Below, piece by piece: positions 1,164 through 50,856 of a stretch of DNA of 64,000 bases. The stretch's first letter is position 1, and every line of letters starts with the position of its first letter. The DNA is from Pseudomonadales bacterium (GTDB lineage Bacteria > Pseudomonadota > Gammaproteobacteria > Pseudomonadales > Oceanobacteraceae). Below the pieces are notes generated by a model. The model was not told the DNA's origin, ran no database searches, and saw nothing but the letters and a program-made list of their open reading frames with translations. The stretch is from assembly GCA_965197005.1 (NCBI GenBank), contig OZ239982.1, positions 1,456,322 to 1,520,321 on the forward strand, written 5' to 3'. Both the position numbers and the translations under genes were made by a program.

Positions 1164-4100
1164 ATGAACGGTAAACGACAACATATTTCACAACAGCTCA
1201 ATCGTCGGGTTAAGATTTTAGGCTTAATCACGATTATCTCTGTTGCTACTGTAATTATTATTGCCTATACCTCTTTGTTATTTCAACAAAAAGATCGTTT
1301 TATCAGTCTTAAAAACAGCTCTGTATTAGAGGTTGAAAACTACCTCTCTGATGTTTTTTCTAGCTTACAATCCATTAATGACGCGCTGATGGTTTCTGAC
1401 GATAAGGCAAACTTATTAAACATTGCTCTAAGTCACAGAGAAAAAATCAAAGAAGTCTATTTAATTGAGAACAATAAAATCACCAGCTCGAGTAGCTATA
1501 TGTTGCGAGACATTAATTTAGCAGACAAACAATTAGCCAGCTGGTTAGCCAATTCATTTTCCAATGATGTGTATATGAGCCAGCCTTTTTTTGACCACAA
1601 TACCATTCCATATATCTATATTGGCACCAAAACCCGTAATGAAAGCAGCCAAGTCATACAAACTTTGGTGGCACGCTTAGATTTATCTAACCTTTGGGTA
1701 TATCTCAATCGTTTGGATTTAAACAAACAAGCAAGCACGGTTATCTATGATAAATCTGGGCGTATTATTTTGCATTCAAACTTACAAACTCTAAATAATA
1801 CTCGCTATATTGATAAACTATTTGATAACCCCGAATATACCGAGATAACAGATTTAGCGTTAAAAAGAAGAAATAAAAATCAGTTTTTTCTCCTAACAGG
1901 ACAACGCATATCCAGCACGACCTGGTATTTAGCTATTGAATACTCGCTTAGCAGTGTCACCAGTGTTTTTCTGCTGTCTGTTTTAGTGTTGGCTTTATTT
2001 TTCTCTTTAATTATTTTCTTGATTTATCAAATCAATCACTTTACGAGTAAAAAAGTCATTGAACCTATTTTTTTATTGCAACGTGGTGTAGAAGAATTAG
2101 AGGCAGGCAACTTAAATCATCGTTTAAATGATTTTGGCAATAATGAATTAGGTTATATTGCATTAGTGCTTAACAAGCTCTCATCTAGGTTATCTAACAC
2201 CTTGGCAAATTTAAACCATCGAGTAAAAGAGCTCAACACCAATAAACAAGCCTTAGAAAAAAGTGAAGCCAACTATCGCTCAGTGGTAAACAATGTAAAA
2301 GAAGTGCTCTTTAATACAGATCCTCAGGGTCGTTGGCAGTTTTTAAATCCCGCATGGGAAGAGATTACAGGTTTTAGTGTAGAAGAAACCTTAGGCAAAG
2401 ATATTTCTGATTTTATTTATGATGAAGATGTAGAGCACTGTTTAAAAACCTGCCATCAAATTTTAGGCTGTAACCTAGACTCTTATGAAGGTGAAGTTCG
2501 AATGTTGAAAAAAACAGGCGAATATCTATTTATGCAAATTTTTGCCAGCCCTTCATTTGATGATGCAGGTCATATTTTAGGTGTAACAGGTGTATTAAAT
2601 AATATTACAGAGCAAAAACTGGCACTCAAACAACTAAAACTGACCTCCAAAGTTTATGTTAATGCTCGTGAGGCGATTATCATTGCCGACCATGATGGTT
2701 TTATTGTTGATGCCAACCCTGCTTACAGCAGTATTACCGGTTATGAGATTAATGATGCCCTCACTAAAAACATTGGCATTGAAAACAACAACCTTAATCC
2801 CATTCACTTTAAACAAACGGTTTTAGAAGAAGCAAATCGTGTTGGCTACTGGAGTGGAGAACTAGAACAGACAGACAAAAACGGCAATGAATTTGTTATT
2901 CAGCTTACCATCAGTGCCATTACTGAAGGCAATAAAATACAAAACTATGTCGCCCTTTTCTCTGATGTTACAGAAAAATTTGAATATAAAAAGCAGCTTG
3001 AATACAGCGCTCATTATGATTCACTGACCAACTTGCCTAACCGTATTTTACTGGCACAAAACATAAAAGAAGCAATGGCAAAAGCACTACATGAAGATTA
3101 TCAAATTGCCATTTGCTACTTAGATTTAGATGGTTTTAAAGAAGTGAATGATATTTATGGGCACAATACAGGCGATAAACTGCTGATAGAAATTGCCGAA
3201 AACATCAAACAAACATTAAGAAAGCAAGACTTTATTGCTCGCCTTGGTGGTGATGAATTTGTGGCGGTTTTAATTGATATAGAAGAAGAAGCCTGTAAAT
3301 CTGTCCTTATGCAGCTACTGCAAACGGTCTCTCAACCCATGCAGGTTAACCATGAGCGTAAAGTACAAATTTCTGCCAGCTTAGGGGTCACTTTTTACCC
3401 ACAGCAGGGCGATTTTGATGCGGATCAACTGCTGCGCCAAGCTGACCAAGCTATGTATCAGGCAAAAATCTTAGGCAAAAACCGCTACCACTTTTTTGAT
3501 ACCGATAAAGACCGTGACTTACGGGGTATGAACCAAATTTTAGAACAAATTGCTTTAGGCGTTCAAAAACAAGAATTTGTACTGTTTTATCAACCCAAAG
3601 TCATGATGAAAACAGGCGAAGTCATTGGCTTTGAAGCCCTTATACGTTGGCAACACCCAGAGAGAGGACTGCTCTCACCTTTTTATTTTTTAGACCCTCT
3701 CAAAAATCAGCCTTTATCTATTGAGGTAGGCAACTGGGTAATTAAACAAGCCATATCACAGTTATCCACTTGGAATAAAAACGGCTTTAAAACAACCATT
3801 AGTATTAATGTAGACAGTTACCAGCTACAGCAAAGTAACTTTATCGCCTCGTTTATTGCTATTTTAAATGAGTATCCTAATGTGCATAACTCACAGGTTG
3901 AGTTTGAAATTTTAGAAAGTAACGCCTTAGAAGATATTTCATCAGTTTCACAAGTGGTGAAAGACTGTCGTGATATGGGGATACATTTTGCGCTAGATGA
4001 TTTTGGCACAGGTTTTTCCTCTTTATCTCATCTTAAAAACCTACCCGTACGCGACCTTAAAATTGACCGTAGTTTTATACGTGACATGCTTGAAGACCTT

Positions 4101-4747: not shown

Positions 4748-6178
4748 ATGACCCTTTCACTTCCTGATTTTAAACTTGCCAATGTCTTGGTTGTTGGCGA
4801 TGTTATGCTAGATAGATACTGGCATGGCAGCACCTCACGCATTTCTCCAGAAGCCCCTGTACCCGTAGTTAACATTAACGATTTAGAAGACCGTGCAGGC
4901 GGTGCAGGTAATGTGGCATTAAACATTGCTGCACTAGGTGCAAACAGCAGTTTAATTGGCTTAATTGGTAAAGACGAAAATGGCGAACAATTAACTCAGC
5001 TACTCAATAAGCAAGGCATTCAAACCGACCTAATTGATGATAACAATATTGCCACAATTACCAAATTACGCATTATCAGCCGCCACCAACAATTATTACG
5101 TTTGGATTTTGAACATCAAAATAACCAAATTAATGCAAAGTTGCTAGACAAAAAGGTTCATCAACGGCTTAAACAAAGCAATGCTTTGGTTTTATCAGAT
5201 TATGGTAAGGGGGTATTACACAATCCCCAACCACTTATTGAGCAAGCAAAAAAAAATCATATCCCTGTACTTATAGATCCCAAAGGGACAGATTTTGAAC
5301 GCTATCGCCATGCCAGTTTAATTACCCCAAATCTCAGTGAATTTGAAGCAGTTGTAGGTCAATGCAAAGATGATAAGCAGCTCGTAACAAAAGCACAAAC
5401 ACTCATTCAAGACTTACAACTAGATGCCATACTCATTACTCGTAGTGAAAAAGGCATGACCTTAGTCCAGCAAGATGCCCCTGTATTTCATTTACCCACC
5501 AGCGCACGGGAAGTATTTGATGTAACTGGGGCTGGAGATACCGTTATTGCTACGTTAGCAAGCTGTTTAGCAAGCGGTATCAATCTCATTGATGCAACCT
5601 GTATTGCCAATGCTGCCGCTGGCGTAGTGGTTGGTAAATTAGGTACAGCCAGCATTAATCCTAATGAATTACAACAAGCATTAACACCGCAAGCACCGCT
5701 TACAGGCGGCATCACCAGCAATCAAGATATGCAACAAATCATCAAAACAATTCATGCAAGAGGCGAAACCTTAGTAATGACCAACGGCTGTTTTGATTTA
5801 CTCCACCCTGGGCATATTCAATATTTACAAGAAGCAAAAAACTTAGGGGATTACTTACTGGTTGCGGTTAATTCTGATAAGTCAGTGCGCCGCTTAAAAG
5901 GCACTCAACGCCCTATTAATAACCTGCAAACTCGTATGCAAATGTTATCTGCACTGCAAAGCGTAGATTGGGTAACCGATTTTAGTGAAGACACCCCGCA
6001 ACGGCTTATTCAACAAATACTACCTGACATATTAGTTAAAGGTGGAGATTATCAAATACACGAAATTGCAGGTGCTGATGCTATCAGCAATAACGGTGGT
6101 ATGGTTAAAGTCTTGAGCTTTAAAGACAACCACTCAAGCTCTGCAATTATCAATAAAATCAAGGAGCAAAATATATGA
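4748..6178 (+). CDS. hldE: Bifunctional D-beta-D-heptose 7-phosphate kinase / heptose 1-phosphate adenylyltransferase
   Basis: 476-aa ORF with a ribokinase-like N-terminal half and a cytidylyltransferase motif (TNGCFDLLHPGH) in the C-terminal half. ATGA overlap with the next gene. Confidence 0.9.
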   Translation: MTLSLPDFKLANVLVVGDVMLDRYWHGSTSRISPEAPVPVVNINDLEDRAGGAGNVALNIAALGANSSLIGLIGKDENGEQLTQLLNKQGIQTDLIDDNNIATITKLRIISRHQQLLRLDFEHQNNQINAKLLDKKVHQRLKQSNALVLSDYGKGVLHNPQPLIEQAKKNHIPVLIDPKGTDFERYRHASLITPNLSEFEAVVGQCKDDKQLVTKAQTLIQDLQLDAILITRSEKGMTLVQQDAPVFHLPTSAREVFDVTGAGDTVIATLASCLASGINLIDATCIANAAAGVVVGKLGTASINPNELQQALTPQAPLTGGITSNQDMQQIIKTIHARGETLVMTNGCFDLLHPGHIQYLQEAKNLGDYLLVAVNSDKSVRRLKGTQRPINNLQTRMQMLSALQSVDWVTDFSEDTPQRLIQQILPDILVKGGDYQIHEIAGADAISNNGGMVKVLSFKDNHSSSAIINKIKEQNI

Positions 6179-38306: not shown

Positions 38307-38418
38307 CAGGGGACAGAGGACAGAGGACAGAGGACAGAGGACAGAGGACTGAGGACTGAGGACAGAGGACTGAGGACTGAGGACTGAGGACTGAGGACTG
38401 AGGACAGAGGACTGAGGA
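38307..38418 (+). repeat. Heptanucleotide tandem array, 16 units of CWGAGGA (CAGAGGA/CTGAGGA; first unit CAGGGGA)
   Basis: Counted directly: 16 x 7 = 112 nt with no interruption. Confidence 0.95.
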
Positions 38419-38422
38419 CAGA

Positions 38423-44297: not shown

Positions 44298-44660
44298 TGC
44301 TGGACTGAGGACTGAGGACTGAGGACAGAGGACAGAACCATGCTCCGCATGGTGCTGGGCAGGGGGCAGGGGTCAGAGGTCAGGGGGCAGGGGTCAGAGG
44401 TCAGGGTTCAGGGTTCAGGGTTCAGGGTTCAGGGTTCAGGGTTCAGGGTTCAGGGTTCAGGGTTCAGGTTTCAGTCCTCAGTCCTCAGTCCTCAGTCCTC
44501 AGTCCTCAGTCCTCAGTCCTCAGTCCTCAGTCCTCAGTCCTCAGTCCTCAGTCCTCAGTCCTCAGTCCTCAGTCCTCAGTCCTCAGTCCTCAGTCCTCAG
44601 TCCTCAGTCCTCAGTCCTCAGTCCTCAGTCCTCAGTCCTCAGTCCTCAGTCCTCAGTCCT
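44298..44660 (+). repeat. Composite heptanucleotide repeat block
   Basis: Read in order: CTGAGGA x3 and CAGAGGA x1 (44305..44332). Hairpin ACCATGC-TCC-GCATGGT (44337..44353). (CAGGGGG CAGGGGT CAGAGGT) x2 (44360..44401). CAGGGTT x9 (44402..44464). CAGGTTT x1. CAGTCCT x27 (44472..44660), which is the inverse complement of the CTGAGGA units. Confidence 0.95.
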
Positions 44661-44663
44661 CTG

Positions 44664-44711: not shown

Positions 44712-44828
44712 GCTTGACGATGACCTACTCTCACATGGGGAAACCCCACACTACCATCGGCGATACAACGTTTCACTTCTGAGTTCGGCATGGGGTCAGG
44801 TGGTTCCGTTGCTCTATGGTCGTCAAGC
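44712..44828 (-). rRNA. rrf: 5S rRNA
   Basis: The reverse complement aligns with E. coli 5S as I remember it (CCCCATGCCGAACTCAGAAGTGAAACG...GATGGTAGTGTGGGG). The terminal helix GCTTGACGA/TCGTCAAGC closes it. Confidence 0.9.
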
Positions 44829-45234
44829 AAACTGGTTTTTATACTTTGTTTTAATGCTCTTTTTGCTGCTTTTTAAAAATGAACAGAGTATAAAAATAAG
44901 GTTGGACACATGGGTTTATATTGAGATTCTCTTTGTTTTTTCTGCTTTCTGCTTTCTGCTTAAAAACCTTAGCGAACCGTCGATTGCGGTTGTTGTTTGT
45001 CTATAACTTTGTTTTCTTCAAAGTATTGATTGTTGACTTGTTTTACCCTTTTTCATCTTTCATCTTTCTTTATTGATGATAGCTGAAGTTTGGGGTTATA
45101 TGATCAAGCCTCACGGGCAATTAGTATCAGTTAGCTCAACGCCTCACAACGCTTACACACCTGACCTATCAACCAGTTAGTCTTACTGGGCCCTACAGGA
45201 CTCTCTAGGAGTCAGTGAGATCTCATCTTGAAGG

Positions 45235-45268
<34 letters not shown>

Positions 45269-45327
45269 TGTCCGAACGTAGCTACCCGGCAATGCGTCTG
45301 GCGACACAACCGGAACACCAGTGGTTC

Positions 45328-45359
<32 letters not shown>

Positions 45360-45436
45360 TCTTCTCAAATCTCATACGCCCACGGCAGATAGGGACCGAA
45401 CTGTCTCACGACGTTCTAAACCCAGCTCGCGTACCA

Positions 45437-45469
<33 letters not shown>

Positions 45470-45471
45470 GG

Positions 45472-45514
<43 letters not shown>

Positions 45515-45543
45515 ACCGCCGTCGATGTGAACTCTTGGGCGGT

Positions 45544-45599
<56 letters not shown>

Positions 45600-45600
45600 A

Positions 45601-45642
<42 letters not shown>

Positions 45643-45720
45643 ATGTACGTCTCGCAGTTAAGCTGGCTTGTGCCATTACACTAACCGTATGATGTCCGAC
45701 CATACTTAGCCAACCTTCGT

Positions 45721-45763
<43 letters not shown>

Positions 45764-46025
45764 ACCCACCACACAGTGTCCTCGATCTGGTTTACAGATC
45801 TGAGTTAGAACCCCAAATCAATCAGGCTGGTATTTCAAGGACGACTCCACGCAAACTGGCGTCTGCGCTTCTATGTCTCCCAGCTATCCTACACAAATTA
45901 ATTCAAAGTTCACTGTGAAGCTGTAGTAAAGGTTCACGGGGTCTTTCCGTCTAGCCGCGGGAATGCTGCATCTTAACAGCAATTTCAATTTCACTGAGTC
46001 TTAGGTGGAGACAGTGTGGCCATCG

Positions 46026-46107
<82 letters not shown>

Positions 46108-46129
46108 TTGGGCTTCGATCAAGAGCTTC

Positions 46130-46728
46130 CCCAGCACCTAAATTTTCTGTTTCTCTAATGCCTTGCTTTCAATTAAATTTGTCTGTTATCCAACCTCTTT
46201 ATTCCTCTTCTGGAATTTAGGGGCTGGGCAAGCCCAGACTTTCTTTAATTATTTGCATCATCTTAATGCCTTGCTTTCAATTAAATTTGTCTGTTATCCA
46301 ACCTCTTTATTCCTCTTCTGGAATTTAGGGGCTGGGCAAGCCCAGACTTTCTTTAATTATTTGCATCATCTTAATGCCTTGCTTTCAATTAAATTTGTCT
46401 GTTATCCAACCTCTTTATTCCTCTTCTGGAATTTAGGGGCTGGGCAAGCCCAGACTTTCTTTAATTATTTGCATTAGTACTTGTTTTGTTTTCTTTGTTG
46501 TTTGAGTCTTTGTTATTTAGTTCTTTTAGCTAAATTCCATTTCTGAAATGCAGTTTCTAAATAAACTCTTAGCTTTTAGCTTTTAATAAAAAGATAAACT
46601 CTATCTAATTATAAGTGCTAAATGGCTTGCCCAGCCCCTAAATTCCATTTCTGAAATGCAGTTTCTGAACTTCCACTTAATTCAAACAAAAAGAAAATAC
46701 TTACAAGTAAAAAAATTTAGGTGCTGGG
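46130..46728 (-). other. 599-nt non-coding insertion at the apex of 23S helix 68 (IVS or expansion segment)
   Basis: E. coli reads GGGGTTA-GC-GCAA-GC-GAAGCTCTTGATCG here. This gene reads GGGGTTA-[599 nt]-GAAGCTCTTGATCG. The block is closed by a perfect 16-bp stem, 46130..46145 (CCCAGCACCTAAATTT) with 46713..46728 (AAATTTAGGTGCTGGG). Confidence 0.8.
46156..46475. repeat. Three perfect tandem copies of a 108-bp unit inside the helix-68 insertion
   Basis: TAATGCC anchors at 46156, 46264 and 46372. Copies are identical by eye, and the third is truncated at about 46475. Each copy contains CTGGG-CAAG-CCCAG, which is a CUUG tetraloop hairpin in rRNA sense. Confidence 0.9.
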
Positions 46729-47410
46729 TAACCCCATCAATTAACCTTCAAGCACCGGGCAGGCGTCACACCCTATACGTCCACTTTCGTGTTTGCAGAG
46801 TGCTGTGTTTTTAATAAACAGTCGCAGCCACCTGGTATCTTCGACTGGTCTCAGCTTACGCAGCAAGTGCTTCACCAAAACCAGCGCACCTTCTCCCGAA
46901 GTTACGGTGCCATTTTGCCTAGTTCCTTCACCTAAGTTCTCTCAAGCGCCTTGGTATTCTCTACCTACCCACCTGTGTCGGTTTTGGGTACGGTCTCTTT
47001 GTATCTGATGCTTAGAGGATTTTCCTGGAAGCATGGCATCAACCACTTCGGACACCGTAGTGTCACCGTCATCAGTTCTCGGCCTTGTGATTCCGGATTT
47101 GCCTAAAATCACAGCCTACTACCTTAAACACGGACTACCATCGCCGTGCTGGCCTAGCCTTCTCCGTCTCCCCATCGCAATACAAAAAGGTGCAGGAATA
47201 TTAACCTGCTTCCCATCGACTACGCTTCTCAGCCTCGTCTTAGGGACCGACTCACCCTGCCCCGATTAACGTTGGACAGGAACCCTTGGGTTTCCGGCGA
47301 GGGGGTTTTTCACCCCCTTTATCGTTACTCATGTCAGCATTCGCACTTCTGATACCTCCAGCCTGCTTCTCAGCTTGACCTTCAACGGCTTACAGAACGC
47401 TCCTCTACCG

Positions 47411-47878
47411 TTCAGAAGACTGAAGACAGTAGACTGATGACTGATTGCTTAACCCCAACTCTTGTGCAAGCCCGTTAACATTTTTGCTATGTCTTGGTAT
47501 GTCTTACGCCAAGACTGCCATGTCTCGTTGCTAATGTAGCCAAGATCCAAACTGTATCTTGTCCACACTCGCATCTCATCGGCTGAACCTATCGCCATAC
47601 TTAAGTAGCGTTTAAATTCAGCTTTGGATATGCGTTGCTTGCCATAGCCTTCCGCTATGTTTGCACAAATGCCTTTACTGGCTCTACGCATTTGATCTGC
47701 TAACCCATTGAGTTGTTCGTTCTTAGGAAATCTTAAGCTTGTTGTATGTACTTCTAAAGAAATCGCATACGCTTTCTTAAACACTTCTAAGTCTTCAAAA
47801 CTTTTTATTGAGTTAACTGGATTTTGCGTCCGTTGGTGTTTCATCTGTCTTCTGTCCTCTGTCTTCAGTCCTCTGAAC
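47411..47878 (-). other. 468-nt intervening sequence in 23S helix 45, carrying an ORF
   Basis: It replaces the E. coli helix-45 cap (CAACAACGCATAAGCGTCGCTG) between CTCTACCG and CCGTAGCTTCGGTG. The flanks TTCAGAAGACTGAAGACAG... and ...CTGTCTTCAGTCCTCTGAA form a 19-bp stem, in which the single mismatch becomes a G.U pair in rRNA sense. Confidence 0.85.
47449..47844 (-). CDS. Four-helix-bundle protein of the 23S rRNA intervening-sequence protein family (the misnamed S23 ribosomal protein family)
   Basis: 131 aa, same sense as the rRNA and lying entirely inside the helix-45 IVS. The sequence (FEDLEVFKKAYAISLEVH...ANIAEGYGKQ...KAEFKRYLSMAIGSADEMRVW) fits the family as I remember it. Confidence 0.85.
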   Translation of the reverse strand: MKHQRTQNPVNSIKSFEDLEVFKKAYAISLEVHTTSLRFPKNEQLNGLADQMRRASKGICANIAEGYGKQRISKAEFKRYLSMAIGSADEMRVWTRYSLDLGYISNETWQSWRKTYQDIAKMLTGLHKSWG

Positions 47879-48488
47879 CCGTAGCTTCGGTGTACAGTTT
47901 TAGCCCCGTTATATCTTCCGCGCAGGCCGACTCGACTAGTGAGCTATTACGCTTTCTTTAAAGGATGGCTGCTTCTAAGCCAACCTCCTAGCTGTCTGTG
48001 CCTTCCCACATCGTTTCCCACTTAACTGTAACTTTGGGACCTTAGCTGACGGTCTGGGTTGTTTCCCTTTCCACGACGGACGTTAGCACCCGCCGTGTGT
48101 CTCCCGGATAGTACTCTGTGGTATTCGGAGTTTGCAAAGGGTTGGTAAGTCGGGATGACCCCCTAGCCTTAACAGTGCTCTACCCCCACAGGTATTCGTC
48201 CGAGGCGCTACCTAAATAGCTTTCGAGGAGAACCAGCTATCTCCGGGCTTGATTAGCCTTTCACTCCTATCCACAAGTCATCCCCTCATTTTTCAACATA
48301 AGTGGGTTCGGTCCTCCAGTTGATGTTACTCAACCTTCAACCTGCTCATGGATAGATCGCCCGGTTTCGGGTCTAATGCTAGCGACTATTCGCGCAGTTA
48401 ACACTCGGTTTCCCTACGGCTCCGCTATTCGCTTAACCTTGCCACTAACATTAAGTCGCTGACCCATTATACAAAAGGTACGCCATCA

Positions 48489-48554
48489 CCCCGCCACCAA
48501 ATGTCTTTTGTCATTTGTGTCGTTATCAAATGCAACAAACATTTGGTGGCGGGG
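48489..48554 (-). other. Enlarged 23S helix 25 (66-nt hairpin against about 14 nt in E. coli)
   Basis: Perfect 16-bp stem CCCCGCCACCAAATGT / ACATTTGGTGGCGGGG plus an inner stem CATTTG/CAAATG. It replaces E. coli ACGCCTAAGCGTGC between GGTACGC..TCAC and CTGCTTGTACGTACACGG. Confidence 0.8.
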
Positions 48555-49201
48555 CTCTGACTGCTTGTACGTACACGGTTTCAGGGTCTATTTCACTCCC
48601 CTCACAGGGGTTCTTTTCGCCTTTCCCTCACGGTACTGGTTCACTATCGGTCATCTGGGAGTATTTAGCCTTGGAGGATGGTCCCCCCATATTCAGTCAG
48701 GATTTCTCGTGTCCCGACCTACTCGTCTTCATTGTATTATTCCTTTCGTGTACAAGACTTTCACTTTCTGCGGTTGCCCTTTCCAGAACATTCCACTAAA
48801 AATAATACAACTTAAGGGCTGCTCCCCGTTCGCTCGCCGCTACTTGGGGAATCTCGATTGATTTCTTTTCCTCGGGGTACTTAGATGTTTCAGTTCTCCC
48901 GGTTCGCCTCAATAACCTATGTATTCAGTTATTGATAACAGCTTATGCTGTTGGGTTTCCCCATTCAGATATCTTCGGATCAAAGGTTGTTTGCCACCTC
49001 CCCGAAACTTTTCGCAGGCTACCACGTCTTTCATCGCCTCCAGATGCCAAGGCATCCACCGTGCACGCTTAATTGCTTGATCATATAACCCTAAACTTCC
49101 TCATCTACCACAAGTAAAGTAGATGAAAATTAACAGCTCAGGATAACCAAACAATCGCCGGTTCGCTTGAGAATCTCATTTTATATTCTCATGTGTCCAA
49201 A

Positions 49202-49213
49202 TTTTTAAAGAAC
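49202..49213 (-). promoter_or_regulatory. boxA-like antitermination motif in the 16S-23S spacer
   Basis: The minus strand reads GTTCTTTAAAAA, compared with E. coli rrn boxA GCTCTTTAACAA. The identical 12-mer recurs in the leader at 51024..51035. Confidence 0.5.
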
Positions 49214-49307
49214 TATAAAAATAAGACTTAATTAAAATTAAACCTTATCCTTACTTCTAACAATAGATATTCGTGTGAGCACTTACATGCAATGTGCAAA
49301 CTTCGTT

Positions 49308-50856
<1,549 letters not shown>

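Follow-up and report, generated by a model that had tools for sequence, protein, structure and literature searches.

A probably horizontally acquired, ORF-bearing intervening sequence at helix 45 of 23S rRNA in a Pseudomonadales bacterium, with heptamer arms that appear to have arrived with the element

Intervening sequences (IVSs) of rRNA that bear an open reading frame have been known since 1993. One such element interrupts the 23S rRNA gene of a Pseudomonadales bacterium with a genome of 2.71 Mb (one contig, 40% GC, three rrn operons), and its stem is built of seven-nucleotide units that resemble repeats found in free arrays elsewhere in the same genome. The question raised by this locus is whether the stem was made from the repeats of the host, as the original prediction held, or whether the heptamers came with the element. 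The locus was analysed in a window of 64,000 nucleotides, which is the whole stretch of DNA under study and to which the coordinates below refer, and it was compared with the rest of the genome, with relatives of the same family and order, and with reference genomes and metagenomic sequences from other hosts.

The rrn operon in the window lies on the minus strand throughout, with the 16S gene at 49308-50846, the 23S gene at 45100-49082 and the 5S gene at 44712-44827. The 23S gene (Rfam RF02541, 2720 bits) measures 3983 nt against 2925 model positions, and the excess length is accounted for by three inserts, one at helix 25, one near model position 1895 and the helix-45 IVS. Alignment to the Rfam LSU model placed the IVS cassette (47410..47878, minus strand; 469 nt) exactly in the loop of an 8-bp helix, where it splits model positions 1206-1226; these positions are helix 45, and the cassette stands in for the tip of that helix, which measures 20-26 nt in relatives. 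The predicted location at the classical helix-45 site was thus borne out by the split in the Rfam alignment, with the base of the stem lying at 47410, 1 nt outside the start that had been claimed. The prospect that the IVS might be missing from the other rrn copies did not materialize; it is carried by all three operons at 98.9-100% identity, and the three copies differ at five positions, one in an arm, one nonsynonymous (A49V) and three synonymous. Comparison with the 23S genes of relatives revealed no target-site duplication at helix 45, and no recombinase, transposase or reverse transcriptase was found within the cassette, whose sole ORF belongs to PF05635. An rnc gene is present in the genome. 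Elsewhere in the same 23S gene, a hairpin extension of about 52 nt was seen at helix 25 (~48505-48560, minus strand; model position 583/584), and this region shows the greatest divergence among the three rrn copies, with the BLAST alignment breaking at query 3395-3437. At LSU model position ~1895, all three copies also have an insert of 595 nt (46132-46726, minus strand), within which a 108-nt unit is repeated perfectly in tandem three times (46156-46474). The 16S-23S spacer (49083-49307) is only 225 nt long, and no tRNA gene was reported in it by Rfam.

The ORF of the cassette (47449..47844, minus strand) is intact in all three copies and encodes a 131-aa four-helix-bundle protein, which matched PF05635 with E = 1.7e-29 (102.6 bits; cutoff 33.8) and TIGR02436 with E = 3.1e-28 (98.1 bits; cutoff 24). 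Both scores exceed their cutoffs and uphold the assignment of the ORF, in rRNA sense, to the 23S-IVS-protein family; the element as a whole proved to be a helix-45 IVS with a PF05635 ORF of the type known from Coxiella and Leptospira, again as predicted. Relatives of the protein in the PDB are 2gsc (XCC0516, 3e-9) and 2rld; five chains were deposited for 2gsc, and XCC0516 is described as a homopentamer. Residues R54, N62, E65 and G66 are invariant in the protein alignment, and the serine of the R..S...N..E motif is Gly58 in the protein studied here. Avd (NF033474), an accessory protein of diversity-generating retroelements (DGRs), has a distantly homologous four-helix-bundle fold in common with it. 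Identity as a DGR component was considered and rejected, as the Avd model NF033474 gave only 24.8 bits (cutoff 80) and no PF00078 reverse transcriptase was found in the genome. No further PF05635 gene was found in the genome besides the three IVS copies, and an exact-protein look-up for the 131-aa product returned no other record.

The ends of the cassette form an inverted repeat with arms of 36 nt each, and TRF detected period 7 in both; the arms were delimited by inverted repeat, TRF and fold. In RNA sense the 5' arm (47843..47878, minus strand) reads G UUCAGAGGA CUGAAGA CAGAGGA CAGAAGA CAGAUGA, so that five CWGARGA-type heptamers (CAGAGGA CUGAAGA CAGAGGA CAGAAGA CAGAUGA) lead into the start codon of the ORF, with the AUG inside the last unit. 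The 3' arm (47410..47445, minus strand), AUCAGUC AUCAGUC UACUGUC UUCAGUC UUCUGAA C, is the complement of the 5' arm with U for C opposite G, which yields G.U pairs. The predicted RNA fold of the stem begins with an unbroken run of 20 bp, one of which is G.U, and continues with 12 bp interrupted by four A.A mismatches; the stem mismatch that was expected to become a G.U pair in rRNA sense does so. The minimum free energy of the IVS fold was -163.6 kcal/mol (z = -8.9), and none of 100 shuffled sequences folded as well. An SD-like GAGGA (47855..47859, minus strand), read from the sequence, lies within a heptamer unit in the stem and precedes the AUG by 11 nt; the 16S rRNA contains the anti-SD CCUCC, and its 3' end reads ...CACCUCCUUA. 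GAGG had been put forward as the only SD-like sequence ahead of the ORF; the GAGGA is indeed there, but the purine-rich AGAAGA lies nearer to the AUG, and AGAAGA was treated as a possible SD in a study of Coxiella (PMC4990558).

The description of the heptamer stem held in part: its units do resemble the arrays of this genome, but a stem of this kind is not unusual, as one has already been published for Coxiella burnetii (PMC4990558). The Coxiella IVS (Afseth 1995; Warrier et al. 2016, PMC4990558) is also located at helix 45, measures 428-444 nt against 469 nt here, and likewise has an inverted-repeat stem (~28 bp), a PF05635 ORF in rRNA sense and an inferred horizontal acquisition. [quoted passage not shown] The two elements differ in that the ORF is intact in the three rrn copies of this genome, whereas that of Coxiella is said to be decaying. 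The 23S IVS of Leptospira, whose ORF is conserved (Ralph & McClelland 1993, as cited in later papers), is similar in being ORF-bearing, excised by RNase III, sporadic in distribution and horizontally transferred.

Outside the IVS, the long arrays predicted at 38.3 kb and 44.3-44.7 kb were both located by TRF. The first (38307..38422, no strand assigned) is a free (CAGAGGA)x16 array with the unit of the IVS 5' arm; the second (44302..44661, no strand assigned) is a free mosaic of heptamers that closely follows the 5S gene and in rRNA sense consists of (CUGAGGA)x27, (CUGAACC)n and inverted CCUCWGU, and its unit sequence is related to the IVS arms, yet it lies outside the IVS. Genome-wide, 93 period-7 arrays were found, amounting to 8.7 kb in about 35 clusters, with CAGAGGA (39), CAGAGGT (12) and CTGAGGA (10) as units alongside minor types; these free arrays of the arm-unit family are a further difference from Coxiella. 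Several clusters are mosaics of a forward arm, a middle block and an inverted arm, and such clusters also follow all three rrn operons. The middle unit of the large mosaics at C1:409941-410984, 500465-500920 and 1780203-1781216 is CTGAACC, CCTGATA or GCTCAGG, and the large mosaics, including the one in the window (44302-44661), look like cassettes without an ORF. The 23S-5S spacer contains (GCAGAAA)n in rRNA sense, and heptamer copy number varies between rrn operons, since 3.3 units are present here (44939-44961) and about 8 at C1:168713-168768.

According to the first of three readings of these arrays, the stem was put together from host CWGAGGA arrays or invaded by them, and the repeats of the host created or spread the IVS. 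About 35 of the array loci in the host are 88-94% identical to the 5' arm over stretches of 32-40 nt, two units of the arm are exact CAGAGGA, and arrays adjoin all three rrn operons; moreover, CWGAGGT arrays occur in relatives that lack the IVS, which suggests that this lineage may have had the CWGAGGN repeat family before the IVS. The comparison with other genomes, however, renders a host-array origin very improbable and largely refutes it. In about 23 relatives of the family and order without an IVS, the two 23S flanks adjoin directly and helix 45 is a plain hairpin of 20-26 nt, which offers no heptamers to build on. As these ~23 relatives are without it, this lineage apparently gained the IVS. 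Among reference genomes, the closest proteins came from a Rhodobiaceae MAG (63% identity), an uncultured alphaproteobacterium (56%) and an Oscillospiraceae MAG (46%), and all three are encoded inside the 23S gene of their hosts, at helix 45 or, in Rhodobiaceae, at helix 25. A maximum-likelihood tree that also included 25 free-standing members of the family, and in which the mistranslated locus L032 is disregarded, grouped the rRNA-resident proteins in one clade with support 97/98. Judged by these sequence comparisons, the IVS in this genome appears to be horizontally acquired.

The stems of these three foreign IVSs are also heptameric, with arms that begin CAGAGGT CAGAGAT CAGATGT, TAGAGGT TAGAAAT CAGAAGT and CAGAAGC CAGAATC. 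A metagenome scan with an alignment of four IVS proteins as the query recovered 80 relatives at 48-73% amino acid identity, and in 71 of the 80 the first tblastn match covered at least 330 nt of the ~390-nt gene. Insertion sites, which were assigned by conserved rRNA anchor motifs, were at helix 45 in 79/80 relatives and at helix 25 in 1/80. The flanking 23S sequences of these relatives are only 66-83% identical to that of this genome, which indicates that they derive from distant hosts. Among the 73 metagenomic loci with both flanks, at least three in-phase CAG (5') and CTG (3') at period 7 were present in both arms in 59 and in at least one arm in 66, compared to CAG/CTG heptamer chains in 10/194 control windows. 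The cognate arm duplexes had a median of 39 bp and -60 kcal/mol, against -37 kcal/mol when arms were paired with mismatched partners. In the closest relatives (L134, L110, L116, L106, L108 and L147) the arm reads CAGAGGA CAGATGA CAGAGGA CAGAAGA CAGATG and ends in the start codon. The arm units vary in step with the protein clade. Furthermore, CAG-type heptamers are confined to the rrn operons in the alphaproteobacterial IVS hosts G041 and G042.

Because near-identical arms are found in the closest relatives, which come from distant hosts, the arms appear to be inherited together with the ORF; the heptamer arms would be a hallmark of the IVS that arrived with its gene and was not recruited from repeats of the host. 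The claim that the stem is made from the repeats of this genome is contradicted by the CAG-phase arms of distant-host IVSs and by the rrn-only heptamers of the two alphaproteobacterial hosts, and the persistence of the same arms in hosts with such divergent 23S sequences, together with the covariation of arm and protein, likewise stands against a host-array origin. The link between the IVS and heptamers that the original prediction drew is real, but its direction is reversed, as the arms came with the element. We consider it likely that the locus, at the tip of helix 45, is an IVS of the S23p/PF05635 class that bears an ORF and was acquired horizontally, and that it is a self-contained cassette with inherited arms.

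The sole helix-25 case among the 80 metagenomic relatives, L185, has arms of CAAGYTN and TTGAACC, which are not in CAG phase. In the Rhodobiaceae MAG, CAGAAVC, the stem unit of its helix-25 IVS, also forms a hairpin in the 16S-tRNA spacer (L031 207-336) and occurs in the 23S-5S spacer of the rrn operon (L004 ~5755-5786). In the Oscillospiraceae host G043 (L036, L049), inverted pairs of CAGARGT arrays lie between convergent genes, on either side of an 80-nt terminator-like hairpin; such pairs look like empty cassettes, and their unit is that of the IVS stem in that genome.

Free-standing members of the protein family were assessed in a wider sample, the best 30 PF05635 hits in 300 genomes of the phylum, of which 25 loci could be scored; none of these best 30 hits was located in rRNA. 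A period-7 tract scoring at least 9 was present in a flank of 17/25 loci compared to 5/100 control windows, a figure that is an upper one and biased upward, as the sample consists of top-scoring hits from one phylum; for periods 5, 6, 8 and 9 the count was 0/25. The upstream and downstream flanks were mutually inverted in 15/25 loci and in 1/100 controls, and both Mann-Whitney tests of PF05635 flanks against controls gave p ~1e-10. The free-standing genes in this sample belong to the family of the IVS gene, and the build of an ORF between inverted tandem heptamers recurs among them; they differ in lying outside rRNA and in having cassette-specific units (AGTAGGC, GTGAGAT, GGCTTAR) that are not in CAG phase, and their proteins, 30-39% identical to the IVS protein, fall outside the rRNA-resident clade. 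Units vary by lineage, with AGGACTA, GTCACYA and others in addition to those just named, and paralogues within a genome have their own units, seven for the seven paralogues of G047 and three in G127. Since each paralogue has its own unit, the arms belong to the cassette and not to the host; arms specific to the host were ruled out by the same two genomes.

Within the family, a single conserved site directly upstream of ahcY is occupied by a free-standing PF05635 gene in ten relatives (loci L029 and L097-L105, in genomes G024, G369, G379, G002, G010, G011, G371, G003, G020 and G013), and the arms at this site differ per genus (GTCGGAC, GGGAGAC, GTTCAGC, GTCGGGC x8-13, GCTTGAA and GATGTGA). Whether other genes of this family are flanked by inverted heptamers, as the original prediction proposed, was followed up in other genomes, and the expectation was confirmed there, in G024, in 17/25 loci of the phylum-wide sample and in 10/10 ahcY cassettes. 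In genus g120, AGTAGGC occurs around the PF05635 genes and at 8-12 further loci per genome, including empty inverted pairs of ~100 nt. PF05635 genes have been described as wedged between operon genes, including those of cas operons (PMC3936711), and an incomplete search of the literature found no publication that states a general link between PF05635 and heptamer arms.

The relationship between the arms and the free arrays was assessed from the distribution of the arrays in 61 family genomes. The pattern CWGAGGN x3 gave 697 matches in this genome and 2-31 in six relatives; these six array-bearing relatives have no IVS and, among the matches listed, only T-type units (CTGAGGT/CAGAGGT), while A-type (CWGAGGA) arrays were present, among the matches listed, only in the genome studied here. 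The array variant that dominates this genome is the one with the unit already carried by the IVS lineage. The A-type is unique to this genome within the family and matches the unit of the incoming arm; a real relationship is the most likely explanation of why the IVS arms resemble the 93 free arrays.

A second reading gives this relationship a direction, in that the IVS arms would have seeded the host arrays, with CAGAGGA units copied and expanded by slippage to the 49 A-type arrays, possibly with help from PF05635 protein expressed from the rRNA promoter. We offer it tentatively, as a possibility that falls short of being probable. It would fit the restriction of the A-type to this genome and the T-type of the relatives, the A-type character of the ancestral arm unit in this IVS lineage, and the excess of pattern matches here over any relative (697 against at most 31). 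The Oscillospiraceae IVS host G043 is consistent with it as well, with about 18 short arrays of its own IVS arm unit scattered through the genome. Carriage of PF05635 and heptamer arrays co-occur in the family (9/10 vs 3/50, p = 1.4e-7), although this association is confounded by shared ancestry, and in these family relatives the arms of the PF05635 cassettes differ in sequence from the free arrays beside which they occur in the genome. Seeding is further opposed by the T-type, CTGAACC and CCTGATA arrays of this genome, which are absent from the IVS, and by G041 and G042, which carry an IVS without free arrays. Moreover, no copying mechanism is known; retro-copying of excised IVS RNA was considered as the source of the arrays and is disfavoured, as the genome has no reverse transcriptase. 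A stricter proposal, under which the arms of the resident cassette would always be the template for the free arrays, was rejected, as CWGAGGT arrays occur in family relatives whose arms are GTCGGGC, GGGAGAC or others.

The third reading is that the arrays and the arms are unrelated and that CAG/CTG-core heptamers are simply frequent, slippage-prone repeats of bacteria; we grant such a coincidence some plausibility and regard it as unlikely. Many bacteria have an excess of heptamer repeats, to which no function has been assigned, examples being GGGAATC in Xanthomonas and GGGGAYT in Nostoc (PMC4692102), and Geobacter has paired arrays of MTYCTGA (PMC2700814). Like the 93 arrays described here, the heptamers of Xanthomonas, Nostoc and Geobacter are genome-specific and are found both as single arrays and in convergent inverted pairs, and the presence of T-type arrays in relatives without an IVS is what coincidence would lead one to expect. 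It accounts poorly, however, for the dominant host unit being the arm unit with an exact 7/7 match, for the A-type being exclusive to the sole IVS-bearing genome in 61, with a parallel in G043, and for the tie between the PF05635 family and heptamers, which control positions do not share. The two studies of bacterial heptamers (PMC4692102, PMC2700814) draw no link from these repeats to PF05635 genes or rRNA IVSs.

A mechanism can be proposed on the preferred reading, in which the IVS is a self-contained cassette with inherited arms. The order of the cassette would be a 5' heptamer arm, the SD and AUG, the four-helix-bundle ORF and an inverted 3' heptamer arm. The cassette would be transcribed within the pre-23S rRNA, and its arms would pair into a stem of ~32 bp, continuous over the outer 20 bp. 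RNase III of the host would then be expected to cut the outer duplex, by analogy with Coxiella, Salmonella and Leptospira; in Coxiella, cleavage by RNase III was mapped to the first repeat (PMC4990558), and whereas cleavage and RNA ends were mapped in that organism, they are predicted here. By the same analogy, cleavage would leave the 23S rRNA in two functional pieces and free an RNA of ~430 nt, which would be the only possible mRNA for the 131-aa protein. The SD and AUG would be buried in the inner stem, which is weakened by mismatches, and translation, if any, would require the inner stem to open; low or conditional translation is predicted because of this burial. The S23p protein was not detected in vivo in Coxiella (PMC4990558), and for this reason the ORF studied here may be unexpressed too. 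As a more speculative step, arms made of tandem repeats could still pair in other registers after slippage has changed the number of units, and heptamer arms may persist because a repeat-built stem tolerates slippage in this way. The constant association of the protein with heptamer arrays suggests, also speculatively, that the PF05635 protein acts on heptamer-repeat nucleic acid.

The heptamer stem itself had in part already been published, for Coxiella (PMC4990558). Together with about 80 relatives, the element described here shows that the rRNA-resident elements form one protein clade that moves between phyla with its own CAG-phase heptamer arms, and the build of a gene between inverted heptamers ties an orphan protein family to the heptamer repeats of bacteria. 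It is conceivable, though we think it doubtful, that PF05635 is the missing protein partner of these repeats and that the protein or the arms seeded or expanded the CWGAGGA arrays of this genome. If this is true, the rRNA IVS would be one landing site of a widespread selfish system made of a protein and a repeat, with a logic like that of REP/RAYT. The genome described here, with a single PF05635 lineage that is confined to the rrn operons and an unusually large load of matching arrays, is a favourable case in which to test it.
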